From positions 607,515 to 671,514 of the forward strand of contig JBAZVG010000001.1 in NCBI GenBank assembly GCA_041661005.1: a DNA stretch of 64,000 nt. The letters run 5' to 3'. Below, piece by piece: positions 13,515 to 48,988 of the stretch (the stretch's first letter is position 1; the number at the start of each line of letters is the position of its first letter). The notes under the pieces are model-generated. The model ran no database searches and had not been told where the DNA came from. It saw only the letters and a program-made list of their open reading frames with translations. Source of the stretch: Minisyncoccota bacterium. Lineage in GTDB: Bacteria; Patescibacteriota; Minisyncoccia; Phycocordibacterales; UBA9973. The position numbers and the translations under genes were made by a program.

Positions 13515-13516
13515 AA

Positions 13517-13609: not shown

Positions 13610-13664
13610 AAAATACGCCTGCAACGAGTTTTTAACTAAAGAGTTTTGTGCTATTATTTTAACT

Positions 13665-19901: not shown

Positions 19902-21170
19902 CTATTTAGCCCAACTCCAATCAGCTCCAGGATTTTTAGCGCCGAAAATTTCAAAGTGAATGTGGGGGCCAGTTGATTTGCCCGTAGAACCCACAAGACC
20001 GACAACATCTCCTCGGTCAACTTGTGCGCCAGTGTGAGTTATGACTTTGCTCATGTGAGCATACAAGGTTTTTGTGCCGTTTGAATGTTGAATTATCACC
20101 ATATTTCCATAACCTCCACCACAACGTGTCTGACCAACCTTACAGCCTGTCTTGACTGCTGTTACGATTCCTGGAGCAGATGCATAAATATTGGTACCAG
20201 TTGGAGCTCCAATATCTATACCTCTTCTGCCCGGACCATGAAGACCTTGAGTTTTGTGGCCAGTTGGAAGGGGATTAATAAAATATCCTATTATATTTTT
20301 CAATGAGCTAGTAGCATAGTAGTTTTTATCCTTGATTTCATTAGCTTTTAGGTTTGGCGATGGAATATCACCTCCTTCATCGGCCATATTGCCATTTGGA
20401 ATCATCAGTTTGTCTCCGATTGCAAGTTTGGTGGCTTCGTTGATGTCGTTGTAAAAAGTAATATCGTCCACATCCACCTTATACAATTTGGCTATGCTCT
20501 GTATTGTCTGCCCCTTAGTAACCGTATGTTCAATACCAGAAATGGGTAAGATGAAGAGCACATCACCCTCGATAATCTTGTCGCTTTTCTTCATATCGTT
20601 GGCCCAGAGGATGGTATTCACTGAAACTTCGAACATATCGGCTATGGCGGATATGGAATCTCCTTTTCTTACAACATAAACACTGGTTTCCATGGCAGAA
20701 GGATCCACAACATCTTTTCCACTGTAGACTCCCATGGGGCCGGTGGCTGGTAAAAGAGCATTGTTAGAGACAATGTTATCTGCGTTATCTACATCAACAA
20801 TGCCTCCTTTGTCTTTTTGGCTAACATCTTTTAATTTTTTATCTTCATAGACTGAAGCAGAAGAGATATTGGCCTGAAGAAGCGCTATGGTTCCAGAAGT
20901 TTGACTAAACTGAGTCGGATCAACAGTTGCCGTCTTCGCGCTGGCATTGTCACCCAAGATTGAAGACAAAAACCCGGCTTGAGCTCTTGTAGGCATAGAG
21001 GGCAACAAAACAACCCCAAACAATAGGGTAAGAGCGAAAATAGAGCTGTATATTTTAAATGAGTGTTTTATAAAACAAACGAATATCGTAAGAGTTCCTT
21101 CCCAGCCCTCGATTAAACATTGTAAAATAAGGGTGGAATTACAGGACGACCAGAATAGTACTGCAAACAA
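19902..21170 (-). CDS. LysM-domain M23 peptidase (secreted cell-wall hydrolase)
   Basis: Two LysM repeats and a C-terminal M23 domain (HxxxD, HIHFE); TTG start at 21170; hydrophobic signal-like segment. Confidence 0.85.
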   Translation of the reverse strand: MFAVLFWSSCNSTLILQCLIEGWEGTLTIFVCFIKHSFKIYSSIFALTLLFGVVLLPSMPTRAQAGFLSSILGDNASAKTATVDPTQFSQTSGTIALLQANISSASVYEDKKLKDVSQKDKGGIVDVDNADNIVSNNALLPATGPMGVYSGKDVVDPSAMETSVYVVRKGDSISAIADMFEVSVNTILWANDMKKSDKIIEGDVLFILPISGIEHTVTKGQTIQSIAKLYKVDVDDITFYNDINEATKLAIGDKLMIPNGNMADEGGDIPSPNLKANEIKDKNYYATSSLKNIIGYFINPLPTGHKTQGLHGPGRRGIDIGAPTGTNIYASAPGIVTAVKTGCKVGQTRCGGGYGNMVIIQHSNGTKTLYAHMSKVITHTGAQVDRGDVVGLVGSTGKSTGPHIHFEIFGAKNPGADWSWAK

Positions 21171-23527: not shown

Positions 23528-23538
23528 AACTCTTTCTT

Positions 23539-23631
23539 GGCATACTTTTTATAAAGCAATCTATCTCCGCAAGCTTGCGGAGCGAACTGCTCGGCTCGTC
23601 AGCCTGCGCAAGGCTTTCTAAAAAGTACGCC
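23539..23631 (+). repeat. intergenic TIR/hairpin repeat family 1, copy C
   Basis: Starts 12 nt after the uvrD stop; central hairpin ctccgcaagcttgcggag. Confidence 0.7.
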
Positions 23632-23656
23632 TGCAACGAATTTCATAATTAAAAAT

Positions 23657-24727
23657 ATGATATATAAAGCTAAAAAATCGTTAGGACTAAAAAACGAACA
23701 CGTTTTCGTCCGAGCCAAAAAGGCTTTAGGACAAAATTTCCTGAAATCGGAAATGGCCTTGCGAAAAATTATTGAAGCGGGAGAAATAAAAAAAGATGAC
23801 ATAATCCTTGAAATAGGTCCGGGCAGGGGAGCGCTAACAAAAAAGCTTTTGGAAAAAGTTTACCCCGCCACGGCGGGGCAAGGATTTGTGATAGCAGTAG
23901 AAAAAGATTATGAACTTTTTGAATTTTTAAAAAATAAATTTGAAAGTGAAATAAAATTAGGTTCTCTCGTGCTGGTGCAAGATGACATACTGGATTTTGA
24001 TATAACAAAAGTTGGGCAAAATATTCTCGAGCGAACCCTTGGTAGCAGAAAATGTGCTGGGGGCACATTTCTGAGAGACGACGGACAGAGAAAATTTTCA
24101 GCAGAAAATTTTCGTGGTGAGTCCGAGAATATTTTGCCCAATTTAAAACGCTACAAAATAATCGCCAACATCCCTTACAACATCACCGGCGCGATTTTGA
24201 AAAAATTTTTGACAGACAAACATCAGCCCGAAAGCATGGTGCTGATGGTGCAACATGAAGTTGCGACAAGAATACTCGGAAGGGGAAGCAACCCTTCGAC
24301 TCCGCTCAGGGTAAAAGAAAGCATACTTTCCATTTCGGTCAAAGCATACGGAGCTCCAAAAATGATTGCGAAGGTTGATAAAAGATATTTTTCACCAATG
24401 CCAAAGGTAAATTCAGCGATTATTTCCATAAAAAATATTTCACGCAAGAATTTTAATTCTCCTCTTGAGGAGTACTCCGACTTGGAGTCGGAGGGAGGTG
24501 GACCGAATTTATCCACCCCGTCTCGCCAGCGAGCCACCCCTCAAGAGGGGAATTTTGAAGAAAAATTTTGGGAAATAGTTAAGGCAGGCTTTGCGCACAA
24601 GCGAAAAAAGCTTTCTAGCAACCTGAAAAACATTTGTCAAAGGGCATCTTTGACAAGTTTGGGGAATAAAAGAGCGGAAGATTTGTCGCTAAAGGATTGG
24701 ATTGAACTTGCGAAATCACAAAACTAG
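23657..24727 (+). CDS. rsmA: 16S rRNA (adenine1518/1519-N6)-dimethyltransferase RsmA/KsgA
   Basis: LGQNFL, EIGPGRGALT, NIPYNI motifs; lengthened to 356 aa by two in-frame repeat insertions. Confidence 0.85.
   Translation: MIYKAKKSLGLKNEHVFVRAKKALGQNFLKSEMALRKIIEAGEIKKDDIILEIGPGRGALTKKLLEKVYPATAGQGFVIAVEKDYELFEFLKNKFESEIKLGSLVLVQDDILDFDITKVGQNILERTLGSRKCAGGTFLRDDGQRKFSAENFRGESENILPNLKRYKIIANIPYNITGAILKKFLTDKHQPESMVLMVQHEVATRILGRGSNPSTPLRVKESILSISVKAYGAPKMIAKVDKRYFSPMPKVNSAIISIKNISRKNFNSPLEEYSDLESEGGGPNLSTPSRQRATPQEGNFEEKFWEIVKAGFAHKRKKLSSNLKNICQRASLTSLGNKRAEDLSLKDWIELAKSQN
24020..24133. repeat. repeat family 2 copy in frame in rsmA (with an extra internal hairpin agaaatgtgc/gcacatttct)
   Basis: TIRs aatattctcgagc ... 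gtccgagaatatt. Confidence 0.7.
24461..24550. repeat. palindromic repeat family 4 (CCTCTTGAGG...CCTCAAGAGG) in frame in rsmA
   Basis: Shared with 31728-31802, 40784-40866 and 48989-49063; inner hairpin variant ctccgacttggagtcggag. Confidence 0.7.
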
Positions 24728-25757: not shown

Positions 25758-25972
25758 TAGAAATAATCATAACACAATCACAAAACTGAGCATAGGTCGC
25801 ATTGCACCAAAGTAAAACTAGTTTCTTTTTTGAAAAGTGTTACAATTAACTCATAATCAAAAAGTTTATTTTAAAAAATAAAAGAATATTTCTAATCGCC
25901 CTTGCGATACTTTTTCTGGTCGCGCTTTTTATCTTTAAAACAACTTCAATATTTGACAATACGGAAAGATAC

Positions 25973-26788
25973 TTGGGCGTCAATCAAGAAAATGGCTTAA
26001 GTTATAGTGGCAGTATTACGGTGGAGGACTCGGTGAACAAAGATACCGATGGTGACGGAATACTGGATTGGGAGGAAGGCCTGTGGGGAACCGATCCAAC
26101 TAAAAAAGAAACCACCCCGGGGACGAGAGATGCTGTCGCAATAGAAAATTTAAAAAAACAAACAGGCAAAGGTGTTGATCCAGAGATTTTGTCGGGAAAT
26201 GAAGAAAAATTGACGGAAACCGATAAATTCTCCAGAGAACTTTTTGCGACCATGGCCACCATCAACCAAAATGGAGTTGTCGATCAAACCACGATAGACA
26301 CTTTGAGCACTTCTTTGGCTGAAAAGATAAAAAATCCCGTAGTCAGAAAAGTTTTTTCGATTTCCGATATAAAAACAATAAACGACGACAGTTTTCAAGC
26401 TTTCACAAATTATAACAATGCTTTAAACAGCACCTTCGCAAAATACAAAGTTGGATACACCGTTGCAGATGTGTTACAGCAATTTGTAACCGATGAAAAC
26501 ACCGTTGACGCGAGCGCGCTCTTAAAACTCGGCCCGATTATAGGACAAATAAACACAATAATAGGGGGGATGACGGGAATGAATACGCCACAATCTATTT
26601 CAACTCTACATTTGAACATGATAAATTCGCTTCAACGATTGATAGAAAATTTAAGTGATATGAGGCTATATGATACGGATCCAATTGTGGCTATGGGCGC
26701 CATCAGCCAATACGACAAAAATAGCACCCTGTTAAAAACTGCCACCAAAAATCTTTTGAGCGCAATTGAACAAAAATTGAACAATTAA
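25973..26788 (+). CDS. hypothetical protein (first gene of T4SS-like cluster); probably starts further upstream with a TM helix
   Basis: TTG start in the ORF track; an in-frame hydrophobic segment 25850-25970 lacks a canonical start. Confidence 0.45.
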   Translation: MGVNQENGLSYSGSITVEDSVNKDTDGDGILDWEEGLWGTDPTKKETTPGTRDAVAIENLKKQTGKGVDPEILSGNEEKLTETDKFSRELFATMATINQNGVVDQTTIDTLSTSLAEKIKNPVVRKVFSISDIKTINDDSFQAFTNYNNALNSTFAKYKVGYTVADVLQQFVTDENTVDASALLKLGPIIGQINTIIGGMTGMNTPQSISTLHLNMINSLQRLIENLSDMRLYDTDPIVAMGAISQYDKNSTLLKTATKNLLSAIEQKLNN

Positions 26789-26796
26789 AATGGAAA

Positions 26797-28776
26797 TTGT
26801 ATAATAATATAAACAAAAAAATGATAGCCAAAGATAAAACAACGAAACTCATATCCGCTTCCTTGATTGTTTCGATGTTACTGCCTGCAGTTTTACTTCT
26901 AAACCCAAAACAAGCAGAAGCTGCGCTTCCGATCGGTGTGCCGGTGAACGATGTTGTAGCTCAAGCAACTCTCCTCGACATTGCAGGAAACACAACGATC
27001 AGTTCTGCAACCGATACCAAAAGCTGGGCACAAAAGCTTCTTGAACTGCTACTCATGGTGGCCGCTAAAAGGTTTCTGGCTCAAATGACCCAAGCGACTG
27101 TAAACTGGATAAATTCCGGTTTCCACGGAGCGCCACTTTTCATTGAAAACCCCGGATCTTTCTTTAAAGATATATCCAAATCTGAACTTAGAAGTTTGAT
27201 TGATATGATCGGCTACGACACTCTCCGGTTTCCTTTCGGCAAGGATATTGCGCTCCAAGTCATAGCGAGCTATAAAAGCCAGCTCGAAACCAACGCGCAA
27301 TACACCCTAAGCAAGGTTATTTACGATCCAGACCTCTTGGTCCGTTACAGAAACGATTTCAACATAGGCGGGTGGAACGGATTTTTGATAAATACGCAAT
27401 ATCCACAAAATAATTACCTGGGATTCAATATGATAATACAGCAAAACCTAGCAAGCAGACTGGAAGGGACATTGATGGCGCCAGCGCAACAAGTAAAAGA
27501 CATTTTGCAACAAGGAATGGGATTTTTGTCTCCGCAGACTTGTCCAAGTAATCCAAAATATAATAATGGCACAAACGAATTTCTAAAACCAAGCTTCAAG
27601 TCCACAGTAGAATATGTTCCACCATCTCCTGAACCTGCAGATACATACTTGGAACGAGATCGCGCAGCCAGAGCCGCATATCAGAACAACAAGAATGTTG
27701 AAAAGGCAAAATACATGGAAGAAAACACATGTCCAGGTGGTTTAGTTTCCACCACCCCCGGCTCAGTGGCGGCAAATCAAATATTTAACGCGCTTGATAC
27801 TCCCAGAGAATCAACCACCCTCGCTGGAGCATTGGGTAATAGTGTGGTGGACAGCGTCGCCGCTATTTTTGACGCACTGATAGGAAAACTTTTTAGCACC
27901 GGCTTGAATGCATTATCCAGCACAATAAATCCCGAGCCTTCTGTAGACAACTGGAGCTACAATGGCCAGACCCTCGACGGTGGTTACAATTACAACACAA
28001 CTACTGCTGGAACTCTGAATATCCCACAAAATGTTTCAGTCAGAGTCGGAGAATCGACCAGCACCGCCATATCCGGAGGCACAGCCCCTTATGTCATAAT
28101 CAACAAAACTCAGCCTTATTTGTTAGAACCAAAATTGGATGCAACAGTAACGAATGCTCAAATTACTGGCGCTACCCTCCGAGTAACTGGTGTCGGATCG
28201 GGACAGACTGTAGCCATGATCAGAGATTCATCTTTCCCGAACAAAATTGTTCGCGTAAAAATCACAGTAAATGCCGTCGGAGCGCTAGCGGCCTTCCCAG
28301 CGAGTATCTCGACTGGCATCAACGAACCGACTACCGCAATCATAAATGGTGGCGAAGGACCTTATTTTGTCAGAATAGAGCCTGACAATTCGATAGCCGT
28401 GGCAAATTTTGCTGATGGAAATTTGATCATAACCGGTCTCAAAAAAGGCGACACCTTTATTGAAATCGAAGATTCATCTTCGGGAACCAAGAAAACCGTC
28501 CGCATCCCTATTGTGATCAACGGCCCCGAAGATCTAGTCATTCAACAAAACGTCCTAGCCAATGTCGGCGAAGAGGTAAGCATACCGATATCGGGAGGTA
28601 TGGCTCCTTATGCCGTTACGAACCAGCAGGATGTGAGAGTGGCAAACGCGCAAATATTGCCTGCTACTCCGAACACCCTCACAATCAATGGCATCTTGAA
28701 AGGTCAAACAGAAATCCGAGTGGAAGATTCTTCAACGCCAAAGAAGGCTGTGATCGTCAGCGTTACAGTAAATTGA
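26797..28776 (+). CDS. large secreted/membrane-anchored protein with three C-terminal Ig-like (Big_2-type) repeats
   Basis: N-terminal TM/signal; ~65-aa repeats containing SGGTAPY / NGGEGPY / SGGMAPY. Confidence 0.55.
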   Translation: MYNNINKKMIAKDKTTKLISASLIVSMLLPAVLLLNPKQAEAALPIGVPVNDVVAQATLLDIAGNTTISSATDTKSWAQKLLELLLMVAAKRFLAQMTQATVNWINSGFHGAPLFIENPGSFFKDISKSELRSLIDMIGYDTLRFPFGKDIALQVIASYKSQLETNAQYTLSKVIYDPDLLVRYRNDFNIGGWNGFLINTQYPQNNYLGFNMIIQQNLASRLEGTLMAPAQQVKDILQQGMGFLSPQTCPSNPKYNNGTNEFLKPSFKSTVEYVPPSPEPADTYLERDRAARAAYQNNKNVEKAKYMEENTCPGGLVSTTPGSVAANQIFNALDTPRESTTLAGALGNSVVDSVAAIFDALIGKLFSTGLNALSSTINPEPSVDNWSYNGQTLDGGYNYNTTTAGTLNIPQNVSVRVGESTSTAISGGTAPYVIINKTQPYLLEPKLDATVTNAQITGATLRVTGVGSGQTVAMIRDSSFPNKIVRVKITVNAVGALAAFPASISTGINEPTTAIINGGEGPYFVRIEPDNSIAVANFADGNLIITGLKKGDTFIEIEDSSSGTKKTVRIPIVINGPEDLVIQQNVLANVGEEVSIPISGGMAPYAVTNQQDVRVANAQILPATPNTLTINGILKGQTEIRVEDSSTPKKAVIVSVTVN

Positions 28777-28792
28777 GAAGTTAGAAAGTAAA

Positions 28793-31267
28793 ATGAGCAA
28801 AAAAATTAAAAAAATAATTCCATATTGCCTGATACTGGTCATCTTGGCCGGACTTTTTGGACCACTAGCGCAGATTCGAGCGCAAGGTCCATCCAACGCA
28901 CAGTCGGCAGGGGCATTGGTGACAGGAATACAACAGATAAATGCAGCAACGCCAGACAAAAGTAAATCAGCATTTGAAAATGCCCTTGATGAACATTGCA
29001 GTACCATAGCGAGTGGAAGTATTGGTGGCTGTCTGGCTCAATTATTTTATTTTCTATTTTACACAATACCAACATTTTTGCTTGGATTAACGGGAAAATT
29101 ATTAAATGTTGTTATCGTCCTTTCCTTGGACAGCGCCACATACAAAACTGGCTTCATAGATCAGGCATGGACAGTTGTCCGAGACTTTTCGAATATTTTC
29201 TTCATACTTATATTGCTGTATGTAGCTATTCAAACAATCTTGGGAATGGGTCACGAGACCAAGAAAATAATAGTCCAAGTCATCATCATGGCGTTACTCA
29301 TAAATTTTTCTATGTTTTTTACAAGAGTAGTAATTGATTCATCAAATATCTTAGCGCTTGTTTTTTACAATAAATTGACTACGTCGCAGGGAGACACTCC
29401 GTCAAATATAGTATCTTTGAAAAACAAAAGTACCGTAGAAAAAGGTATAACAGAAAAATTAGTTCAAGGGTTTGATATTACAAGGTTAATTAACGCAGAA
29501 TTTTTTAAACAGGCAAAAACCAGATCGGGGTTTGCTCCAGTATCCTTATCAAGCGCCGGATATACTGGAGCCGGAGCGGTGATTGGGACTTATATATTGC
29601 CAGGAGTGGGTACTGTAATTGGTGGAATCGCAGGGTTTACGTTGGCTTGGATCAACTCTGACAAGGTGCCTCCTTCTCTGCTGATAAGCATACTGATACC
29701 AGCAGGAATCATTATGTACTACGCAATGTACGTCTTTTTCACAGCGGGAATAGCTCTCTTGTCTAGAATAATCGAACTATGGGTGCTTACAATTTTTTCA
29801 CCATTTGCCTTTATGTCTTCAAGTTTGCCTTCACTGGCAAAGTTCCCGGGTGTTGGCTGGAGTGAATGGTTAAAAAGACTTTTTGAGGTAGCTCTCTCGG
29901 CGCCGATTTTTATGTTTTTCCTATTGCTGATTTTTAAAATAGTAGATGCGGATATAACCAAAGATCTACTCTCGCCAACAAGATTAGCGAAAGATCAGTG
30001 GCTCTTAGAAACAATCGTCCTTGTATCAATCGCTGCCTTTATAATTCTAGCACTCCTACAAAAAGCTACAAAATATGCCAAGAAAGCATCGGGAGAATTG
30101 GGAGAATTAATAACGAAGGGCGTAGGTCTAGTCAGTGGACTTGCCATAGGTGGAGGAATAGGTGTTGCAGCGGCAGGTTTGCAGGGGAGCTTGGGACATT
30201 TAGGTCAGAAGGCCTACGAGTCTAAAGGGTTGGCGGAATTGGAAACAAGTAAAAAAACTGGCATAAGAGGATGGGGTGAAAGAAGTATCGGTCGTGGATT
30301 AAGGACCATCGCAGGCGGAGATGACGGCAAAGGTGGATTTGCTGGTTCAAGTTTCGACTTGAGAAAAGGCACAGCTGGTGGAATTTTGAAACTGGCATCC
30401 TCCGCCACTGGGTTTAATTTAGGAGCGCAATCTAAATTCCTCATGAAAGAAGAGGGTGGATATATGGCAGACCTAAAGAGACGAGATGCAAAAAGAAAAG
30501 AGAGAGCCGAGGGATTGCAAGAATCATCAAGCGCAAAAGCCAAAGAAGAATTGCGCGACGCAGAAGACCAGCACCAAACCCTAATGACGGTAAGCTCACA
30601 GCCAATCAAAGAAATTGAAGAAAAAATCAAGAAAGCTCGAGAAGCTAAAAAGGATGCTAAAGCGGGAGATAAAGACGCAATATCAGACAAAATTAAAAAA
30701 CTCGAAGAACAGAAAAAGGCAATCAAGAATGCTAAAGCAAAGTCAATTGAAGAAGCTGAAAAAGATGTTAAAGAAGCAACTGAAGCGGCTGAACAAGCAA
30801 AACAAGCCTTAAAAGACAACCCTGATGACAAAGCCCTTCAAGATGTGGCTTGGGATGCCAACCAAAAATTAGCTGCTACTAAAGCTGGTAGAGCTTCTGC
30901 CATATCTGCTAAGGCTCTTGGTCTCAAGCCTGAAGATATGAGATCTATTAATGATTATGAGGATAATCTGATTAAAGATGCTAAACACAAGGTGCATCAC
31001 ACGGAGGAAAGAGTCGCACGAGCCTTCTCTGAGAATATAGAAAAGCAATTAGCTTGGCCATGGAATAAGGCTGCGCGCAAAAGATCGGCACAAGACATAA
31101 GAATGGGTATCAAGCCGGAAAAAAGTCATGATGAGGGGCACGGCGCACAACACTTTTGGGGTGATTTAGCAGCAGGAGCAATAACAAATGCACTTTCTGA
31201 TCATGGACACGAAGAAAAGAGTGATAATGCTAAACCTAGTGGAGACTCACATGCACCTGGACACTAA
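28793..31267 (+). CDS. VirB6/TrbL-like polytopic membrane protein with long C-terminal coiled-coil/low-complexity tail
   Basis: Signal peptide, then ~6 TM helices, then a Lys/Glu/Ala-rich 350-aa tail; TrbL-like architecture. Confidence 0.5.
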   Translation: MSKKIKKIIPYCLILVILAGLFGPLAQIRAQGPSNAQSAGALVTGIQQINAATPDKSKSAFENALDEHCSTIASGSIGGCLAQLFYFLFYTIPTFLLGLTGKLLNVVIVLSLDSATYKTGFIDQAWTVVRDFSNIFFILILLYVAIQTILGMGHETKKIIVQVIIMALLINFSMFFTRVVIDSSNILALVFYNKLTTSQGDTPSNIVSLKNKSTVEKGITEKLVQGFDITRLINAEFFKQAKTRSGFAPVSLSSAGYTGAGAVIGTYILPGVGTVIGGIAGFTLAWINSDKVPPSLLISILIPAGIIMYYAMYVFFTAGIALLSRIIELWVLTIFSPFAFMSSSLPSLAKFPGVGWSEWLKRLFEVALSAPIFMFFLLLIFKIVDADITKDLLSPTRLAKDQWLLETIVLVSIAAFIILALLQKATKYAKKASGELGELITKGVGLVSGLAIGGGIGVAAAGLQGSLGHLGQKAYESKGLAELETSKKTGIRGWGERSIGRGLRTIAGGDDGKGGFAGSSFDLRKGTAGGILKLASSATGFNLGAQSKFLMKEEGGYMADLKRRDAKRKERAEGLQESSSAKAKEELRDAEDQHQTLMTVSSQPIKEIEEKIKKAREAKKDAKAGDKDAISDKIKKLEEQKKAIKNAKAKSIEEAEKDVKEATEAAEQAKQALKDNPDDKALQDVAWDANQKLAATKAGRASAISAKALGLKPEDMRSINDYEDNLIKDAKHKVHHTEERVARAFSENIEKQLAWPWNKAARKRSAQDIRMGIKPEKSHDEGHGAQHFWGDLAAGAITNALSDHGHEEKSDNAKPSGDSHAPGH

Positions 31268-31307
31268 AAATTTACTTGTCCCGTACTAAATTATAAAAAC
31301 AAAACAC

Positions 31308-31847
31308 ATGACTGAAAAATTAAAACAAGCAATTGAAGAAGAAATCGCAAAATTGCCCAAAGAAGGGCAAGACGCCATTGGTGCTGTTAATTGGATTAAA
31401 ATAACCGAAGAAATAGGGAAAAAGTTTTTACTGGAAAATGATGAAATAGAAGATTTTCAATTGGAAACATTATTAGTCTTGATCGGATCCGTGGACTCTG
31501 AATTCTATTCAGTTAACATCGAAAACCAAGTGGGCACGACGAAGGAAGAAGCAAAAAATATGGCCGATGAAGCTTTCCAGAAAATATTCGTTCCCATAAG
31601 AAATATTCTGGAAGAAAATATAAAGAAAGATATGAAAAATAAAAATCCGGATTGGAAACAATCTCTTGATTTTATTCTCTCGGGTGGAGACTATCTTTCT
31701 TTTATAACGCCAACACAGACAAATTCTCCTCTTGAGGAGTACCCTTTAGGGGGAGGTGGAATATCCACCCCGTCTGGTAAACCAGCCACCCCTCAAGAGG
31801 GGAACGATCAAGAAACAGTTATCCCAGTGTTTTCGATAAAAAAATAA
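31308..31847 (+). CDS. hypothetical protein (carries a family-4 repeat in frame)
   Basis: 179 aa; N-terminal region resembles the next ORF. Confidence 0.45.
   Translation: MTEKLKQAIEEEIAKLPKEGQDAIGAVNWIKITEEIGKKFLLENDEIEDFQLETLLVLIGSVDSEFYSVNIENQVGTTKEEAKNMADEAFQKIFVPIRNILEENIKKDMKNKNPDWKQSLDFILSGGDYLSFITPTQTNSPLEEYPLGGGGISTPSGKPATPQEGNDQETVIPVFSIKK
31728..31802. repeat. palindromic repeat family 4 copy (in frame, encodes SPLEEYPLGGGGISTPSGKPATPQEGN)
   Basis: cctcttgagg ... cctcaagagg termini. Confidence 0.7.
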
Positions 31848-31880
31848 ACCAACAATTAAAATCTAAGCTATAATAACACC

Positions 31881-32549
31881 ATGACAGATACAATAGACTT
31901 GTTGCAAATAAAAATAGAGAAAGCGAAAAGGGAACTTCCGTCGGAAACTTTGAACGCCATTAACGCTGTCGACTGGAAGGCGTCCATCTTGGAACTGCGA
32001 GCAAAAAAGGGATACACCTTTGAACAGTTGAGTGATCTCGAGCTTGAAACAGAATTATTGCTTTGTGGACTTGCTCGTGCAGAAGATTACCCAAAAGAAC
32101 TGGAAAAAAGAATGGGGATTTCAAAATCGGCTACTAATGATCTGGTAAATGAAATGAACAACTTGGTTTTTAGAAAAATAAGAGAAGAATTAATCAAAAA
32201 TACTGAGAGAAAAAAAATATACGCGCAAAATGAACAAAAAAACACCAGCGACTCTCAAATCCTAAAATCAGTCGGTATTGAAATCGTCGAAAAAGAAACC
32301 TTGCCAGTGGCAGAGAAACTAGAACTCACGACAGCGCCCGTGGCTGGAGAAAAGTTTAAAGAAATCAGGAAGGAAGTGTTAGAAAAGATAGAAAATCCAG
32401 AGCCCGCTCATCCGATATTGGCTCAGAAATTGTCCGCCTCAGTCCAAGCTCCAATAGTCAAAACAGATCATTCGCTAGGCAACCTGTCTAAGACAAATAC
32501 ACCAAACACCACGCCCAAAATAGATCCTTACCGCGAAATACCGGAGTAG
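31881..32549 (+). CDS. hypothetical protein (distant paralog of 31308-31847)
   Basis: 222 aa; similar N-terminal helical region. Confidence 0.45.
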   Translation: MTDTIDLLQIKIEKAKRELPSETLNAINAVDWKASILELRAKKGYTFEQLSDLELETELLLCGLARAEDYPKELEKRMGISKSATNDLVNEMNNLVFRKIREELIKNTERKKIYAQNEQKNTSDSQILKSVGIEIVEKETLPVAEKLELTTAPVAGEKFKEIRKEVLEKIENPEPAHPILAQKLSASVQAPIVKTDHSLGNLSKTNTPNTTPKIDPYREIPE

Positions 32550-32598
32550 ACACTGTGGGAGAGTAATCAGATTCATGTTAAACTTAGGTTAGTTCTCA

Positions 32599-33015
32599 AT
32601 GCAATTCAAAGTACCACAATTTTTAGATATAGAAGACAAGATCTTTGGTCCATTCACTTTCAAAGAGTTTGTTTACTTGGCAGGTGGAGCAGGTCTTTGT
32701 TTTGTGCTTTATAAATTGCTGGGGCTCGTCTGGGGCGCTATACCGATCTTGGCAGTCGGAGGATTTTCAATAGCTCTCGCTCGATATAGACCCAACAACA
32801 AACCTTTCATCAATATGATCGAGGCGGGATTTAGCTATTTAATGCAGAGCAAGCTCTACATTTGGAAAAGACGCACAAATAAAGCGAACACTAAAGAACA
32901 GAAAGAGATAGCAAATGAAAATATTGTCATGAATAGGAACACGGTAAGGTTAGGAGGGAACAAGTTGCGGGATTTGGCTTGGAGCCTGGACGTGCTTGAT
33001 TTAAAAAAGCAGTAA
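32599..33015 (+). CDS. PrgI/VirB3-like small membrane protein
   Basis: FKVPQFLDIEDKIFGPFTFKEFVYLAGGAGLCFVLYKLL matches the PrgI-family pattern; two TM helices; immediately upstream of VirB4. Confidence 0.5.
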   Translation: MQFKVPQFLDIEDKIFGPFTFKEFVYLAGGAGLCFVLYKLLGLVWGAIPILAVGGFSIALARYRPNNKPFINMIEAGFSYLMQSKLYIWKRRTNKANTKEQKEIANENIVMNRNTVRLGGNKLRDLAWSLDVLDLKKQ

Positions 33016-33024
33016 ATTAATAAT

Positions 33025-33666
33025 ATGTCTTTAAACGCAAAAGCAACTCAAGAGTTTGTGCCAATCAAGGAAGTCCGCGATGGAGTAATCGTGCTAAAAG
33101 ACGGCGGATTGCGAGCAATCATACTCGCTAATTCGGTCAATTTATCGCTAAAGTCAGGTGAAGAACAAAAGGCCACCATTTTTCAATTCCAAAGTTTTTT
33201 GAATACTTTAGATTTCGCCGTTCAGATATCGGTGCAAAGCAGAAGGCTGGATATCCGACCGTATCTATTGCTTTTAGAAGACCGAGCAAAAGTGCAAAAC
33301 GAGCCCTTGCTCAAATTGCAAACAAAGGAATACATAGAGTTCATAAGAAATTTTACCGAATCAGTAAGCATAATGACTAAAAGTTTTTTTGTGGTAGTTC
33401 CATATACGCACACTGTTTTAAGATCAGACTCCGGGATATTAAAAAGATTGTTCCAAAAAAGAAACAAAGAAGAAGCAAACACTGCAAAACAAGAAGATTT
33501 CGAGGAAAAGAGATCGCAACTGGAAGAAAGAGTAAGCGTGATCGAACAAGGGCTCAGTCGCTGTGGCATAAAATCAGCCCAGCTGGGCACGGAAGAAGTC
33601 GTGGAAGTATTTTATAAAGTATTTAATCCGGGGGAAGTGGAGGGGAAGATTAAAATTGAACAATAA
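33025..33666 (+). CDS. VirB4/TraC-family ATPase, N-terminal domain (separate ORF)
   Basis: CagE/TrbE/VirB N-domain-like; stop at 33666, next ORF starts at 33672 in another frame. Confidence 0.55.
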   Translation: MSLNAKATQEFVPIKEVRDGVIVLKDGGLRAIILANSVNLSLKSGEEQKATIFQFQSFLNTLDFAVQISVQSRRLDIRPYLLLLEDRAKVQNEPLLKLQTKEYIEFIRNFTESVSIMTKSFFVVVPYTHTVLRSDSGILKRLFQKRNKEEANTAKQEDFEEKRSQLEERVSVIEQGLSRCGIKSAQLGTEEVVEVFYKVFNPGEVEGKIKIEQ

Positions 33667-33671
33667 AGATT

Positions 33672-35519
33672 ATGGGCATATTTGATAAATTATTTAAAAA
33701 AAAAGGAAGTAACTCTTACGGAGGCGAAGCCAATGCGTCTATTCTAGCGGTATTACCGGAACAAATCTATGAATCGGCGAGTCTAGAGCTCCAAGATGTG
33801 ATCGCGCCATCAGCGCTCAAAATCGAATCAAAGTCCATAAATTTGGGCGACAAAATCGCTCGAACATTTTTTATAATATCTTACCCGAGATTTTTGACTG
33901 ACAATTGGTTTTCTCCGATAATCAATTTGGACAAAGTTTTTGATATTTCAATTTTCATCCATCCGATAGACACCTCTTTGATGCTACGACAATTTCAGAA
34001 AAAAGTTGCAGAAGTGCAAAGCCAGATAAATGTGCGTGAAACAAAAGGCATGGTACGCGATCCGATGCTTGACACTTCCTACCAAGACCTCGAAGGGTTG
34101 CGCGACAGCTTGATCCAAGCGCAGGAAAAAATGTTTGATGTCGGAATTTACATAACTATTTATGCCGATAATGAACTTGAGCTTTTCAAAACTGAAAATG
34201 AAATAAAATCCATGTTGGAATCTAAATTGATATACATCAAACCAGCGCTTTTTCAACAAGAAGACGGTTTCAAGAGCGTCATACCGATAAATACCGACTT
34301 GCTAAATATTCACCAAAAATTAAATTCGGAGCCCCTCTCGAGCGTTTTCCCGTTTATCTCTTTCGATCTGACTTCTGACAAAGGCATCCTTTACGGCATC
34401 AATAGACACAACTCAAGCTTAGTGATCTTCGATAGGTTCAGCTTAGAAAACTATAATTCAGTAACTTTTGCCAAATCAGGTTCAGGAAAATCATACGCGA
34501 CAAAATTGGAAATCCTCAGGTCTTTGATGTTTGATGTTGACGTGATAGTGATAGACCCAGAAAGGGAATACGAGTTTTTGTCTGAAGCCGTGGGTGGGAG
34601 ATATTTCAACATCTCCCTTTCTTCAGACCATCATATGAATCCGTTTGATCTGCCAATGCCACGTGAAGACGAAACGGCTGAAGATGTGTTGCGTTCAAAC
34701 ACCATTAATCTGGTCGGGCTCTTTCGATTGATGCTGGGAGGACTCACGCCCGAAGAAGATTCGATGGTTGATCGAGCCATTTCAGAAACTTATGCCATCA
34801 AGGATATAACTCCAGAATCGGATTTTTCAAATATCGAGCCTCCACTCCTTTCAGACTTTGAGATGGTGCTAGGAGGAATGGATGGAAGCGATTCGATCGT
34901 GCAACGTTTGGCAAAATACACCAAAGGCTCTTGGGCAACTTTTTTAAATAGACCAAGTAACGTGGACATCAATAAAAAGTTCATCGTCTTCTCTGTCCGC
35001 GATATGGAGGACGAATTGAAACCGGTCGCAATGTATATAATCATGCATTACATCTGGAATTCGATACGCAAAAATCTGAAAAAACGTTTACTGGTCGTCG
35101 ATGAAGCTTGGTGGATGATGAAATCCGAAGACACTGCTTCGTTCCTATATTCTATCGCCAAAAGAGGCAGAAAATATTATTTGGGACTTTCTACGATCAC
35201 CCAAGACGCGGCTGACTTCATGAAATCTCCATATGGCGTACCGATAATCACCAACTCCTCTATCCAGCTATTGTTAAAACAATCTCCGACAACTATTGAT
35301 ATACTGCAAAAAACATTCAATTTAACTGACGAAGAAAAATACCTCCTGCTCGAATCGAGCGTGGGCGAAGGCATCTTCTTTGCAGGGTTAAAGCACGTTG
35401 CCATAAAAATAATTTCTTCCTACATAGAAGATCAGATAATTACCAGTGACCCTTCGCAGATATTGTTAAATAGAAAAGCAAAAGAAGAACAAGAGGCGGG
35501 GACGCTAGTTGCAAAGTAA
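33672..35519 (+). CDS. VirB4/TraC-family conjugal-transfer ATPase, C-terminal ATPase domain
   Basis: Walker A AKSGSGKS, Walker B LLVVDEAW, conserved GLSTITQ region. Confidence 0.8.
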   Translation: MGIFDKLFKKKGSNSYGGEANASILAVLPEQIYESASLELQDVIAPSALKIESKSINLGDKIARTFFIISYPRFLTDNWFSPIINLDKVFDISIFIHPIDTSLMLRQFQKKVAEVQSQINVRETKGMVRDPMLDTSYQDLEGLRDSLIQAQEKMFDVGIYITIYADNELELFKTENEIKSMLESKLIYIKPALFQQEDGFKSVIPINTDLLNIHQKLNSEPLSSVFPFISFDLTSDKGILYGINRHNSSLVIFDRFSLENYNSVTFAKSGSGKSYATKLEILRSLMFDVDVIVIDPEREYEFLSEAVGGRYFNISLSSDHHMNPFDLPMPREDETAEDVLRSNTINLVGLFRLMLGGLTPEEDSMVDRAISETYAIKDITPESDFSNIEPPLLSDFEMVLGGMDGSDSIVQRLAKYTKGSWATFLNRPSNVDINKKFIVFSVRDMEDELKPVAMYIIMHYIWNSIRKNLKKRLLVVDEAWWMMKSEDTASFLYSIAKRGRKYYLGLSTITQDAADFMKSPYGVPIITNSSIQLLLKQSPTTIDILQKTFNLTDEEKYLLLESSVGEGIFFAGLKHVAIKIISSYIEDQIITSDPSQILLNRKAKEEQEAGTLVAK

Positions 35520-35537
35520 TACAACCCCTCCCAACCT

Positions 35538-35584
35538 CCCCTTGTCAGGGGAGGAAAAATTCGGAGTGTCTCCCTGACAAGGGG
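35538..35584 (+). terminator. GC-rich hairpin (ccccttgtcaggg / ccctgacaagggg, 13-bp stem) after the virB4 stop, before an extended -10 promoter (TGGTATAAT)
   Basis: Seen directly. Confidence 0.35.
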
Positions 35585-35620
35585 GATATAGGGGGTTGAA
35601 TTATGGTATAATTAAATTGC

Positions 35621-36610
35621 ATGAAATTTGGAAAATTTTTGTCATTATGTTTAATCGCCACGTTTGCAGTATTTGTAATTATTCCAACATACAAGGCAAA
35701 CGCTCAATCGTCTGGTGGCATCTCGATCAACATGTCGCCCTCCAATCCGGCGCCGTATGAAAACACGACTATCACCCTAAAAAGTTATGAGAGCAATCTA
35801 GACAGCGTCTTGATATCTTGGTCTATCGATGGAAAAGTTTCCTCCTCGGGTATTGGCAAAAAATCATTCTCTGTCACCGCTCCAGCCACAGGAGGGGAGA
35901 TGCGTGTTGTGGCCACAATATCTTTACCAAGTGGCCCAAAAAATATAAGTTTAACGATAAAGCCCTCTGTAATGGTTCTACTTTGGCAGGCAAACGACTC
36001 GCATGTTCCTCCTTTTTATAAAGGCAAGGCTCTACCAACCCCTGACAGCGAAGTGAAGGTTGTAGCGATGCCTGAAATAAGAAATAGTTCTGGTAATATT
36101 CCTCCACAGAACATGATCTACTCTTGGAAAAAAGACTACACCAACAACGTAGACGGTTCAGGCTATGGTAAAAGTTTTTTTCTCTACATAAACGATTATT
36201 TAGAAGACTCAAATAATATTTCAGTCGTAGTTTCGACCATAGATCAACAACTTTCATCGAATGCAAGCATAGACATAGGAACAGTCCAACCAAAAATATT
36301 ATTTTACAAAAATGACGCCAATCTTGGCACGATTTTAGAGCATTCACTGCTTAATCCTCACAAAATACAAGGAGGGGAGATATTAGAAGCAATACCTTAT
36401 TTTATTTCACCGAAAGAAATACAAAATCCGACCTTGGTCTGGAATTGGTATATCAATGACAATTTGGTAAACTTAATAAGTCCTAAAAAAAATTTAATGC
36501 CGTTGCAGGTGGAAGCAGGGACACACGGAACATCCAAACTAAGGCTCAATATTGAAAATCAAGACAAAATTTTTCAAACAGCAAATAAGGAAATAAATAT
36601 AGAATTCTAA
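35621..36610 (+). CDS. secreted hypothetical protein
   Basis: Signal peptide MKFGKFLSLCLIATFAVFVIIPTYKANA; Ser/Asn-rich. Confidence 0.5.
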   Translation: MKFGKFLSLCLIATFAVFVIIPTYKANAQSSGGISINMSPSNPAPYENTTITLKSYESNLDSVLISWSIDGKVSSSGIGKKSFSVTAPATGGEMRVVATISLPSGPKNISLTIKPSVMVLLWQANDSHVPPFYKGKALPTPDSEVKVVAMPEIRNSSGNIPPQNMIYSWKKDYTNNVDGSGYGKSFFLYINDYLEDSNNISVVVSTIDQQLSSNASIDIGTVQPKILFYKNDANLGTILEHSLLNPHKIQGGEILEAIPYFISPKEIQNPTLVWNWYINDNLVNLISPKKNLMPLQVEAGTHGTSKLRLNIENQDKIFQTANKEINIEF

Positions 36611-36616
36611 AATAGA

Positions 36617-37255
36617 ATGAAACATGTAAAATACATTTTAATACTTATAATACTAGTTGGTATATTTGGCACAATAACGCAGGTGAGTGCGCAAGGTTAC
36701 CGAATTGGAGACACAAGCACACAATCAGGCACAACAGCTGCAGATGCGATAAATGTGCAAAATGCGCGACAAATATTGAATAATCCTAATTCTACTCCAG
36801 CGCAAAGAGCTACGGCCACTGCGCAAATTAATGCAATAAATGCACAAGCGGCGGCGGCAAATCCGCCACCAACTCAAACACCATCCACTCCAGCAAACAC
36901 AAAATATCAGCTTTTGGCTCCATTGCCCGATCCATATAACAACAATCAACTGAAAAAAGAAATCAACACGACAAGCGGATTTGGCGCATATCTAAATCTG
37001 ATGATAAAAATATTTATAGGTCTTGCCGCAGTTTTGTCTGTGGTAATGATTGTAGTGGGTGGGTTAGAAGTTATGACAAGTGAGCTTTCTCACACTAAAA
37101 CAGCAGGTAAGGAAAAAATAGCGCACGCCATCTTGGGACTTGTTATAGCCCTGGGAGCTTACGCGCTTCTTTATACGATAAATCCAGACTTATTAAAGAG
37201 CGATCTGTGTATTCATCCACAAGTTTTTCAAAATGGAAAATGTGTTAATCCATAA
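36617..37255 (+). CDS. pilin-like protein (VirB2/TrbC-like candidate): signal peptide plus two hydrophobic helices
   Basis: Signal peptide, Ala/Gln/Pro-rich linker, two TM segments. Confidence 0.4.
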   Translation: MKHVKYILILIILVGIFGTITQVSAQGYRIGDTSTQSGTTAADAINVQNARQILNNPNSTPAQRATATAQINAINAQAAAANPPPTQTPSTPANTKYQLLAPLPDPYNNNQLKKEINTTSGFGAYLNLMIKIFIGLAAVLSVVMIVVGGLEVMTSELSHTKTAGKEKIAHAILGLVIALGAYALLYTINPDLLKSDLCIHPQVFQNGKCVNP

Positions 37256-37257
37256 TT

Positions 37258-38844
37258 ATGCCAAAAAGAAATTTCGTACTTTTAATAATAGTTCTGGTAA
37301 TCGCGGTAATTGCGATTTTTGGATTTTATTATTTTCAGCCGGAAACAACCGAGCCGGGAAGTGAGAATGAAAACACTGGTACAAATTTTATCTCACAATT
37401 CAATCCATTTGGAAGCAAAAAGGAACCCACAGAAACTGTCACACCTTCGGTTGAGGTCTCAGGCTATCAACCTCCTGTTGAAGACATACAAAAAAAACTA
37501 AATAAAGTTTCAACTATGCCCGTAGCAGGATTCACGGTTTTTTCCAAAGAAAGGTTAAAAGAAATACCGATAATAGTGCCAACAACAGCCCCAAGCATTC
37601 CCTACAACTTCGGTTCTGTTACTCTCAAAAATGGAAGCACTGGTGAAGCAGTTATGGAAATTCAAAGATTTTTAAACAATACGCTTGATCTTAGTTTAGA
37701 GCTTGACGGTATATTAGATGCGGAAATAATTACCACAATTAAAGAGTGGCAAAGTAATAATGATTTAGTTGCCGATGGTATCGTCGGCGCAAAAACAAAA
37801 GCGATGATGTACTCATCGGTAAATCAAGAAATAATAACAACGAAACCAAAAAAGCCATTGACTGAATTCGCGTCCGCCTTGAGATATGTTGACAGAGCGA
37901 CTGGAAATATTTACCAAACCTTCGCTGATAAAATCGAAGAAAAAAAATTCTCTGCGACCATAATACCAAAAGTGCATGAGGCATTCTTTGATAGCAAAGG
38001 AGAGTCTGTAATTATGCGTTATCTAAAAGAAGATGAGAGAACTATAGAAACTTTTGTCGGAACACTTCCGAAAGAATTGTTGGGAGGGGAGGCAAAAGAC
38101 AGTAATGAAATCAAGGGAACTTTTCTTCCAAATAATATCAAAGACATAAGCATGTCGCCCGATGGTTCGAAGATATTCTATTTATTCAATGTTGGAGACA
38201 GTGTAGCGGGCGCCACTTTTAGTTTTTTAAATAACAAAAAAGCTCAAATATTTGATTCTCCTTTTACAGAATGGCTGTCATTTTGGCCAGCTAAAAATGT
38301 TATTACCCTCACGACCAAACCTTCCGCCAATGTCCCCGGATACATGTATAGCATTGATGGGGCTGGTAAAAATTTGACCAAAGTGCTGGGTGGCATAAAC
38401 GGGTTGACTACACTAGGAAGCCCGGACGGAAAATTAATTCTTTACAGCGACAATAATTTATCACTTAATATTTATCATACAGATACAAGGAGTTCGGATC
38501 TATTAGGAATAAAAACTCTGCCAGAAAAATGTATCTGGAATAAAGGGGGGAAAGCAAACGATGTCATCTACTGCGCAGTGCCAAAATCTATTAACCTAAA
38601 CCAATATCCAGATGTTTGGTATCAAGGAGAAATATCTTTTAACGATCAGATTTGGAAAATAGATGTCAAAACAGGAAATGGAACAATGATTGTAGACCCA
38701 ATCACTGTCGATAGGGGACCTGCCTCATCGAGTCAAGGCATAGGAGAAATCGATGGCATCAAGCTTGCCTTGGATGAAAGTGAAAATTATTTATTTTTCG
38801 TGAACAAAAAAGATTCTTTTCTCTGGAAATTGGATTTGGAATAA
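37258..38844 (+). CDS. membrane-anchored protein with PG-binding domain and TolB-like beta-propeller repeats
   Basis: N-terminal TM; GEAVMEIQRFL...DGIVGAKT; SPDGSKIFY / SPDGKLILY repeats. Confidence 0.55.
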   Translation: MPKRNFVLLIIVLVIAVIAIFGFYYFQPETTEPGSENENTGTNFISQFNPFGSKKEPTETVTPSVEVSGYQPPVEDIQKKLNKVSTMPVAGFTVFSKERLKEIPIIVPTTAPSIPYNFGSVTLKNGSTGEAVMEIQRFLNNTLDLSLELDGILDAEIITTIKEWQSNNDLVADGIVGAKTKAMMYSSVNQEIITTKPKKPLTEFASALRYVDRATGNIYQTFADKIEEKKFSATIIPKVHEAFFDSKGESVIMRYLKEDERTIETFVGTLPKELLGGEAKDSNEIKGTFLPNNIKDISMSPDGSKIFYLFNVGDSVAGATFSFLNNKKAQIFDSPFTEWLSFWPAKNVITLTTKPSANVPGYMYSIDGAGKNLTKVLGGINGLTTLGSPDGKLILYSDNNLSLNIYHTDTRSSDLLGIKTLPEKCIWNKGGKANDVIYCAVPKSINLNQYPDVWYQGEISFNDQIWKIDVKTGNGTMIVDPITVDRGPASSSQGIGEIDGIKLALDESENYLFFVNKKDSFLWKLDLE

Positions 38845-38975
38845 AATTCCAAAACTTGTTGCAGGTGTAGTTTTAGATAGACATTGCGCAGGCTGTCGAG
38901 CCGAGCATAGCAAATTTTCAGCAGAAAATTATGTCGTGTCTAGATAAAACTATACCAAGAAAGAGTTTTGGAATT

Positions 38976-40783: not shown

Positions 40784-40866
40784 TCCTCTTTGAGGAGTAC
40801 CCTTTAGGGGGAGGTGGATGAATTTTCCACCCCGTCTCGCAAAAGCGAGCCACCCCTCAAGAGGGG
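40784..40866. repeat. palindromic repeat family 4 copy in the rpmH-rnpA spacer
   Basis: cctctttgagg ... cctcaagagg; inner hairpin ctcgc-aaaa-gcgag. Confidence 0.7.
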
Positions 40867-40869
40867 AAT

Positions 40870-41004
40870 CTAAACAGATAACTTTTTTCTGCCTTTTTGA
40901 CGTCTCCTCTTCAACACTTTCTTGCCAGTCTTGATTCTAGATCGAACTAAAAATCCATGGCTTCGAGCTCTCTTTCTTTTTTTAGGTTTGTATGTAAATG
41001 ACAT
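40870..41004 (-). CDS. rpmH: 50S ribosomal protein L34
   Basis: 44 aa [44 protein letters not shown] matches the L34 consensus; absent from the ORF track because it is shorter than 60 aa. Confidence 0.85.
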
Positions 41005-48865: not shown

Positions 48866-48988
48866 TCGAAGATCTGCCCGAGCTCCGGGAGGGGTCTGAC
48901 AAGACCCCTCCCATCCATCAAAGTCCACTAGTTGGACTCTTTCACTGAAGGAGCACTAGTGGCTTTTTCTTTTACCTTTTTTATTATT

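Follow-up and report, generated by a model that had tools for sequence, protein, structure and literature searches.

The 64,000-nt stretch of DNA considered here (the window) is part of contig JBAZVG010000001.1 (positions 607,515 to 671,514) of a Minisyncoccota bacterium. Eleven co-directional open reading frames (ORFs) on its + strand, from ~25868 to 38844, very likely constitute the chromosomal type IV secretion system (T4SS) operon of Patescibacteria, which is nested in the MPF_FATA group and is read as non-conjugative. This system has already been published (Wang 2023; Quinonero-Coronel 2025), including its MPF_FATA ancestry, its TrsD, PrgI, VirB6 and VirB2 content, the lack of a relaxase, and the origin-proximal position. 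The window thus holds no new kind of system, and is a clean and complete example from the largely uncultured Paceibacteria. New detail is provided by five conserved syntenic partners (genes 1, 2, 4/5, 9, and 11) without T4SS annotation in the published Table S3 for the orthologous locus. These partner genes, and the fusions of VirB2-like proteins to wall enzymes in relatives, are missed by current T4SS profile sets and are targets for work on the epibiont-host connection. A quarter of all bacterial diversity may belong to the Patescibacteria, which are dependent on host cells, and their T4SS is the first shown to be essential to its own carrier.

The initial annotation of this DNA had counted eleven co-directional genes, and this count stands. 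The ORFs are separated by gaps of 2-101 nt and appear to form a single operon. The position given for the first gene, 25850, has to be corrected, since no canonical start is present there and an ATT at 25868 is the probable start. The GC content of the locus is similar to that of the rest of the window, and Rfam and tRNA scans inside the locus gave no match. ksgA lies upstream of the operon. The small ORFs downstream read as an rpmH-rnpA-yidD-yidC-jag block, divergent from dnaA-dnaN, and the operon is ~2.3 kb away from dnaA. Judged from sequence, the DNA stems from a Nomurabacteria-like Paceibacteria genome, a Patescibacterium. Exact database records exist for the VirB6-like protein (WC735_03590) and the gene 2 product (WC735_03585), both as "hypothetical protein" in a Candidatus Paceibacterota metagenome-assembled genome (MAG).

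The best curated model for the product of gene 8 is NCBIfam NF045971 conju_CD1110 (368.8 bits, cutoff 325), and the protein also matches Pfam P-loop_TraG (1.2e-24) and the PDB VirB4 sequence 4ag5 (7e-38). The Walker A (AKSGSGKS) and Walker B (LLVVDE, residue 473) motifs are present, as expected for the VirB4/TraC ATPase that had been proposed at first sight. By its sequence, this VirB4 belongs to the Patescibacteria VirB4 clade. The initial annotation had also considered that the ATPase might group with families outside T4SS and lack other components; the ATPase is of T4SS type, and TrsD, PrgI, and a VirB2-like protein were confirmed beside it.

Gene 7 stops 5 nt before virB4 and matches the TrsD model NF041427 over positions 14-200 of 201 (5.6e-7, under the curated cutoff). 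It also aligns with positions 4-177 of the VirB4 model TIGR00929 and 101-233 of NF045975. It covers the N-terminal ~180 positions of several VirB4 models, and the match of the 615-aa protein begins at position 183 of 752. The two products cover complementary parts of the VirB4 models, and VirB4 is therefore split into two genes. In 75 loci, the TrsD-like gene likewise stands apart from virB4, as an ORF of 209-234 aa with a median identity of 73%.

Gene 6 scores 26.9 bits against PF12666 (cutoff 27), and all 31 orthologues scanned match this family, the best at 4.1e-11. The hydrophobic segment of the protein spans residues 27-61, and BLASTP against pCF10 PrgI gave no match. Its earlier identification as PrgI/VirB3-like is upheld, but not its placement directly upstream of VirB4, as the TrsD-like gene lies between the two.

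Gene 3 probably encodes a VirB6-like protein, as suggested by fold and orthology rather than by a direct profile match. Besides a signal peptide and a conserved Cys pair, the protein contains at least six long hydrophobic helices (residues ~77-460), followed by a 348-aa tail that is rich in A, K, E, and D, 36% charged, and His-rich at its end. Loop charges gave no clear answer on the topology of this tail. The helices and the tail correspond to the polytopic VirB6/TrbL-like protein with a ~350-aa charged tail described previously; the VirB6 name itself is carried by fold and orthology. An AlphaFold2 (AF2) model of residues 1-476 (pLDDT 78.8, pTM 0.73) was searched by Foldseek against 350,542 PDB chains, and the top four matches were Legionella DotA, which is a structural VirB6 homologue, and three R388 TrwI/VirB6 chains (E 0.03-0.17; probability 0.89-0.91 for the best three and 0.33 for the fourth). 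As an informal control, the equally helical gene 2 model found only unrelated coiled-coil proteins with a Foldseek probability below 0.1. The orthologue ETB64080.1 of RAAC4_OD1_1 is identified as VirB6 by the CONJScan T_virB6 profile (Quinonero-Coronel et al. 2025, Table S3). The family of the VirB6-like protein comprises 15,688 clusters (50% identity) at E <=1e-3, and the best 150 matches of the profile search were close relatives only, with no transitive link to TrbL/VirB6.

Inheritance of the locus and its relation to known systems

One genome per species was scanned for relatives, which gave at least 544 loci with a VirB4 relative, and the best 80 were used for comparison. All of these belong to Candidatus Nomurabacteria, Paceibacterota, or Patescibacteria MAGs, and their VirB4 proteins are 74-95% identical to that of the window. 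Gene order was determined by tblastn of every window protein against the related loci. Wherever the flanks reach, the order is ksgA - gene 1 - gene 2 - VirB6-like - (gene 4/5) - PrgI - TrsD - VirB4 - gene 9 - pilin-like - gene 11 - jag(-) - yidC(-) - dnaA - dnaN, with DnaA at a median of 7.7 kb downstream of VirB4. The same order is seen in ~50-80 species-level relatives. The profile searches and comparative synteny that the initial annotation had recommended identified four components and a gene order that is collinear in 50 of the 53 loci having all seven core genes.

The median identities are 85% for VirB4, 73% for TrsD, and 59% for PrgI, compared to 79% for DnaA, 68% for DnaN, and 66% for YidC. 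In each of the 51 loci that allow the comparison, the identity of VirB4 is higher than that of DnaA and that of DnaN, which places the operon under stronger constraint than the replication initiator. The envelope-exposed proteins diverge fast (median identity 29-45%) and vary in length. According to these values, the core proteins of cytoplasm and membrane are under strong purifying selection, and the surface parts change rapidly. The fixed position and the conservation of VirB4 indicate a vertically inherited core operon and not a mobile element. Plasmid-borne VirB4 relatives have at most 35% identity, and those listed are all from Firmicutes or Actinobacteria (monoderm) and mostly annotated as CD1110 family; no VirB4 relatives were found in viral contigs. 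A mobile-element origin was considered and rejected on GC content, shared position, VirB4 conservation, the distance of the plasmid copies, and the lack of viral copies.

These results agree with a survey of 3,035 Patescibacteria genomes, in which VirB4 was found in 2,417, nearly all in one clade within MPF_FATA (Quinonero-Coronel et al. 2025). In that survey TrsD is the commonest virB4 partner, the genes close to virB4 include those of PrgI/VirB3, VirB6, and PF18895/VirB2-like type, VirB8 and VirB1 are seldom found, and the 109 relaxases are rarely near virB4 (Quinonero-Coronel et al. 2025). In Paceibacteria and Microgenomatia, virB4 is located near dnaA, dnaN, ksgA, rnpA, and rpmH (Quinonero-Coronel et al. 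2025). The VirB4 of RAAC4_OD1_1 (ETB64084.1; locus L055 in the present comparison) is part of the published VirB4 set and is 79% identical to the window VirB4. Its operon is listed gene by gene in Table S3, with VirB6, VirB3, TrsD, VirB4, and VirB2 ordered as in the window.

The published Patescibacteria-clade T4SS, with the SEML1_0006-0019 locus of Southlakia epibionticum as one representative, shares with the window the split TrsD and VirB4, PrgI/VirB3 upstream, VirB6, and a PF18895 VirB2-like protein. Both are chromosomal, lie beside dnaA/dnaN/ksgA, and have no relaxase or type IV coupling protein (T4CP) nearby. In contrast, S. epibionticum has a lysozyme or peptidase downstream of virB4, which is not the case in the window, and the window has one VirB2-like gene whereas arrays of 2-11 are common in Saccharimonadia and Microgenomatia. 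By transposon sequencing (Tn-seq), S. epibionticum was shown to require the T4SS cluster, with its pilin genes, in order to grow epibiotically, and its T4SS was noted to lack coupling and relaxase proteins (Wang et al. 2023).

The monoderm MPF_FATA systems (pCF10 Prg/Pcf, pGO1 Trs, pIP501 Tra, CTn2 CD1110) have in common with the window the CD1110-type VirB4, the absence of an outer-membrane core, and the placement of genes for a PrgI-like hairpin and for a polytopic protein immediately before those of the ATPase; pGO1 also has a TrsD-like protein upstream of VirB4. However, when compared to the conjugative MPF_FATA systems, the window is without relaxase, T4CP, PrgK/TraG-type hydrolase, detectable VirB8-like protein, and LPXTG adhesin, and has a VirB2-like protein that those systems lack; VirB4 identity is <=35%. 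pCF10 PrgH and PrgI show no pairwise or profile similarity to window proteins. Pfam scans of the large ORFs of the whole 64-kb window revealed neither a relaxase nor a VirD4/TcpA-type coupling protein, as stated in the initial annotation, and no integrase lies within or beside the operon.

The diderm VirB/Trw (MPF_T) and Dot/Icm systems share the two-helix VirB2-like domain, and the VirB6-like model is closest to DotA/TrwI. The window VirB6-like protein resembles DotA in combining a signal peptide with conserved cysteines and with hydrophobic helices of great length, and the 348-aa charged tail makes the window protein an "extended VirB6". In contrast to diderm VirB/Trw systems, the window operon has no VirB7, VirB9, VirB10, or VirB11, and VirB5 was not recognised; the structural similarity is weak. 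Helicobacter pylori ComB and archaeal Ced/Ted are likewise powered by the VirB4 family, chromosomal, and without relaxase, but their specific partners were not identified in the window.

The VirB2-like protein and the partner genes

The gene 10 product is a signal-peptide, two-helix, pilin-like protein, in agreement with the initial annotation. It scores 26.6 bits against PF18895, equal to the cutoff, and only weakly against TrbC; 23 of ~30 orthologues match PF18895, the best at 4.7e-10. A signal peptide is followed by a ~95-aa low-complexity linker of Q, A, N, T, and P, a pair of hydrophobic helices at residues 130-186, and a short tail with Cys. Gene 10 is atypically short and has no C-terminal extension, which is also missing from its counterparts in L001, L005, and L058.

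Most orthologues are longer: in 62 of the 68 loci compared, the protein continues beyond the PF18895 hairpin with a C-terminal extension that has at least 90 aa (median 182 aa). The extended orthologues have 300-730 aa and consist of a signal peptide, a variable N-extension, the hairpin, and the C-terminal extension. The extensions fall into at least ten unrelated sequence clusters, several of the large ones without a Pfam match, and those with Pfam matches are all peptidoglycan enzymes (NlpC/P60, VanY, YkuD, Amidase_5, and SLT_2). The "VirB2" of RAAC4_OD1_1 in the literature is also a fusion with a C-terminal extension, and no paper describing a fusion of the hairpin to a wall enzyme was found in the literature searched. 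Such enzyme fusions may account for the apparent lack of VirB1 homologues, and they make it questionable that the hairpin forms polymers in the manner of a classical pilin in the Paceibacteria clade.

The gene 1 product is anchored at its N-terminus by MLKNKRIFLIALAILFLVALFIF and carries a TSP3-like motif for Ca binding, DTDGDGILDWEEGLWGTDP (TSP3_bac), as well as an all-helical extracytoplasmic domain of ~200 aa. No ATG, GTG, or TTG precedes the conserved anchor, and the frame is open 5' of the first TTG at 25973. Translation probably starts at the ATT at 25868, which would give the N-terminus MLKNKRIFLIALAILF, the same as in relatives starting with ATG. The anchor is kept in orthologues, several of which begin with MLKNKR. 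The gene 1 frame is likewise open without a nearby canonical start in several close relatives (L009, L017, L023, L036, and L039). The gene is syntenic in 35 loci, and its profile gave only Ca-binding motif matches against PDB.

Gene 2 probably starts at Met9 (26821) of the ORF 26797-28776, as in the NCBI model. The layout of its product comprises a signal peptide, a long N-terminal helix, a Cys-containing middle, and long C-terminal helices, and the gene lies directly 5' of the VirB6-like gene. The N-domain of ~360 aa is conserved and mostly helical, with an invariant Cys pair and the motifs NWINSGFHG and GGWNGF..TQYPQNN. It is followed by three tandem Ig-like repeats of ~85 aa each (~28003-28773), of which the first and third are 45% identical (E 8e-18) and the second and third match at E 4e-9. 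The three repeats of the initial annotation are thus confirmed, but not their Big_2 label, as the orthologues match PF13629 and Ig_NUP210 instead; the number and length of the repeats vary among relatives. The AF2 model of the N-domain is all-alpha and poor (mean pLDDT 63.6), and Foldseek found only generic long-helix proteins for it, with no VirB5-like or hydrolase fold. A weak DUF4141 match in two gene 2 orthologues was confined to the signal-peptide region and was discarded. Gene 2 is a candidate surface or adhesin part. As a speculation from its layout, which is reminiscent of VirB5/IcmX, it might be a stalk or tip protein of that type.

Genes 4 and 5 are tandem paralogues of one family, which is invariably encoded after the VirB6-like gene and before PrgI. 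Both have a helical N-domain, which is sometimes duplicated within one protein in relatives. In gene 5, this domain (~110 aa) is followed by a variable linker, the conserved C-terminal motifs PILAQKLS..TDHS, and the extreme C-terminus DPYREIPE; in the family alignment, the long form reads P(I/L)LxQKLSG...T(E/D)HS and then DPYRE(I)PE at the extreme C-terminus. The C-terminal part of gene 4 is an in-frame copy of a dispersed repeat (31723-31820). No relatives of this family were found in Pfam, NCBIfam, or PDB, and gene 5 is a candidate adaptor or substrate.

The gene 9 product has a nearly constant length (~310-360 aa) and 71 orthologues with invariant W, Y, and P columns. The orthologues give sub-threshold matches to Ig_3, BiPBP_C, and PKD_3, the profile has no match in PDB, and the protein would be a conserved component of the wall zone. 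The gene 11 product carries a PG_binding_1 domain at residues 128-184, an insert that is absent from most orthologues. Its C-terminal domain of ~330 aa is conserved in 65 loci, the N-region is variable, and the profile gave only PG_binding matches against PDB. Apart from such small motifs, genes 1, 2, 4/5, 9, and 11 have no relatives in Pfam, NCBIfam, or PDB. The PG-binding proteins of the initial annotation are confirmed by PG_binding_1 in gene 11 and in the opposite-strand gene upstream, but the latter is not part of the core. The promoter-like sites in the region, including the one before gene 1, are not more numerous than expected from shuffled sequence.

Features of the T4SS locus and its immediate surroundings, with examples of extended VirB2-like orthologues
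Feature	Coordinates	Strand	Basis or remark
Divergent secreted PG_binding_1 protein, 333 aa	24756..25757	-	Pfam; accessory, not core; only 4 related loci
Promoter-like site TTGAAA-16-CATAAT, 10/12	25830..25857	+	Consensus match only; just 5' of gene 1
Gene 1, bitopic membrane protein, ~306 aa	25868..26788	+	Frame, orthologues, TSP3_bac
Gene 2, signal-peptide protein with Ig-like repeats, 651 aa from Met9	26821..28776	+	NCBI model, repeats
Gene 3, probable extended VirB6-like polytopic membrane protein, 824 aa	28793..31267	+	Hydrophobic helices, fold, orthology
Gene 4, acidic cytoplasmic protein, 179 aa, short paralogue of gene 5	31308..31847	+	Paralogy E 2e-4
Gene 5, cytoplasmic protein, 222 aa	31881..32549	+	Family alignment
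Gene 6, PrgI/VirB3-like membrane hairpin protein, 138 aa	32599..33015	+	PF12666
Gene 7, TrsD-like, equivalent of detached VirB4 N-terminal domain, 213 aa	33025..33666	+	Profile matches
Gene 8, VirB4 ATPase (middle and C-terminal P-loop domain), 615 aa, CD1110/MPF_FATA type	33672..35519	+	NCBIfam, Pfam, PDB matches
Gene 9, secreted or anchored beta-rich protein, 329 aa	35621..36610	+	Orthologue alignment
Gene 10, VirB2-like "T4SS pilin" hairpin protein, 212 aa	36617..37255	+	PF18895
Gene 11, bitopic protein with N-terminal anchor, 528 aa	37258..38844	+	PG_binding_1
Dispersed GC-rich repeat copy	38845..38907		Directly after last stop codon, in convergent gap to jag
Extended pilin-like orthologues (examples)	L003:12861-14174, L016:12871-14616, L052:11873-13714, L055:12872-14278, L063:13751-15328		Other loci too

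Function and rival explanations

In the proposed mechanism, VirB4 (presumed to be a hexamer) and TrsD would dock on the membrane via PrgI and a translocon formed by the extended VirB6-like protein. Together with the VirB2-like protein, the anchored or secreted products of genes 1, 2, 9, and 11 would build a structure that reaches through the cell wall to the host cell, and the cytoplasmic paralogues of genes 4/5, with their conserved C-terminal peptide, would act as adaptors or cargo. The purpose with the best support is that of a non-conjugative, contact-dependent machine on which the epibiotic lifestyle relies. Protein export, or the building of a pilus-like surface structure that penetrates the wall, is favoured over DNA transfer, although this more specific role is only about as likely as not. 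The initial annotation had pointed in the same direction, with a minimal Gram-positive-like T4SS in a small-genome bacterium serving host interaction or DNA uptake rather than conjugation, which fits the CD1110/MPF_FATA ATPase and the literature. According to reviews, comEC is dispensable in S. epibionticum and the role of the T4SS is "completely unknown", with speculation on effector delivery or on uptake via a pilus-like conduit. Since comEC is dispensable, the essentiality of the T4SS is not due to competence (reviews); in the one Patescibacterium tested, competence depends on comEC and type IV pili and not on the T4SS (review).

A more specific and rather doubtful proposal is that the pilin-like protein is a modular wall-active protein and gene 2 a VirB5/IcmX-type stalk or tip, which together would form an enzyme-bearing structure that breaches the cell wall towards the host. 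If true, this would be a monoderm T4SS that builds an enzyme-bearing structure through the cell wall in the direction of its host. Two M23 peptidases, one with LysM, are encoded 5-9 kb upstream of the operon (16049-16909 and 19902-21170, both on the - strand), and are candidate wall hydrolases that could replace the missing VirB1 function; in most related loci, the 10-kb flanks do not extend that far.

Several points weigh against the T4SS identification and the function proposed for it. Operon status is read solely from gene spacing. Gene 3 obtained no direct sequence support from Pfam or NCBIfam on the window protein or from Pfam on 31 orthologues; a 31-sequence profile had no match among PDB sequences, and a 63-sequence profile showed no similarity to pCF10 PrgH by hhalign. 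Its Foldseek matches are weak (TM-scores <=0.37, E 0.03-0.17) and suggestive only. Profile and PDB-sequence searches of the operon gave no sequence match to a VirB8-like protein (NTF2-fold, PrgL/TraM type), and genes 1-11 contain no catalytic domain of a VirB1-like peptidoglycan hydrolase (PrgK/TraG type), only PG_binding_1. T4CP-like genes are present elsewhere in related genomes (Quinonero-Coronel 2025 Table S3). The 80 loci were picked by VirB4 similarity, which slightly biases the comparison towards VirB4 as the most conserved gene. Finally, the function is extrapolated from one Saccharibacterium to Paceibacteria.

Among the alternatives, an import machine appears unlikely. Here the T4SS, with its pilus-like part, would serve to import DNA, nucleotides, or further building blocks from the host, in the manner of ComB or Ced/Ted. 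Such a role would suit Patescibacteria that are unable to make nucleotides, amino acids, or lipids, and reviewers have proposed the T4SS as an uptake route given that comEC is dispensable and the T4SS essential. The lack of a relaxase or T4CP near the operon and the position of the VirB4 relatives of archaeal import systems within the broad MPF_FATA group also fit. However, ComB- or Ced-specific partners were not detected, the operon shows no evident component for binding or cleaving DNA, and there is no experimental evidence of import by any Patescibacteria T4SS. It is still less probable that the VirB4 system is a housekeeping device, with the insertion of surface proteins into its own cell or the remodelling of the cell's wall as its main task, and that it is essential for this reason rather than for manipulating the host. 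The conservation of VirB4 above DnaA and DnaN in 51/51 loci, the fixed place beside yidC and oriC, the presence of the system in ~80% of Patescibacteria genomes whatever the class, and the VirB2-like extensions in 62/68 relatives, whose Pfam-matching members are cell-wall enzymes, all speak for such a device. On the other hand, a T4SS with a purely housekeeping role has no precedent, and the parts exposed at the surface change quickly and differ in repeat number, a pattern more typical of proteins that face a partner cell.

A conjugative element or its remnant (an integrative and conjugative element or integrated plasmid), with relaxase and coupling protein encoded elsewhere, is the most improbable of these explanations and is already largely refuted. 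The VirB4, TrsD, and PrgI families do derive from monoderm conjugation systems, T4CP-like genes occur elsewhere in related genomes, a few Patescibacteria have relaxases, and the window contains a tyrosine recombinase gene (10963-11949). In contrast, the locus occupies the identical position (ksgA to jag-yidC-dnaA) in dozens of species, is under strong purifying selection, and shows no contrast in base composition. Relaxase, T4CP, and integrase were not found within the operon or next to it, the recombinase lies at a distance of 14 kb and resembles XerC/D, and the relaxases of Patescibacteria number only 109 among 3,035 genomes and are seldom near virB4.

Other features of the window

Dispersed GC-rich repeats of several families, 55-120 nt long, occur in both orientations. 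Copies are located at 22392-22586, 24077-24134, 24510-24568, 31723-31820, 48977-49068, 56167-56256, and 62250-62767, and intergenic copies at 10477-10595, 13514-13632, 23527-23643, 38845-38907, and 40826-40884. Many repeats lie in frame inside ORFs, including UvrD, KsgA, PolA, UvrB, and RuvB among the housekeeping genes as well as gene 4, and encode peptides like SPLEEY..GGG..STPS..ATPQEGN. These in-frame repeats resemble Rickettsia palindromic elements. At 10477-13632, two inverted 119-nt repeat copies (91% complementary) surround a 2.9-kb segment with genes for the tyrosine recombinase, a methyltransferase, and an Exo_endo_phos nuclease. This segment could be an invertible or mobile cassette, or the repeats could be intergenic copies placed there by chance.

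A diversity-generating retroelement is present at 7020-9707 on the - strand. Its parts are a reverse transcriptase (7020-8069, RVT_1) and two repeats, of which the template copy is located at ~8479-8586 and the variable copy at ~9083-9190, within the 3' end of the ORF 9060-9707. In the repeat core, all mismatches are at adenines of the template copy.

A PilB/GspE-type ATPase is encoded at 53415-55112 on the - strand (T2SSE, 5.9e-115), and the window therefore also holds part of a type IV pilus or type II secretion apparatus, which is another system linked to epibiosis in Patescibacteria.

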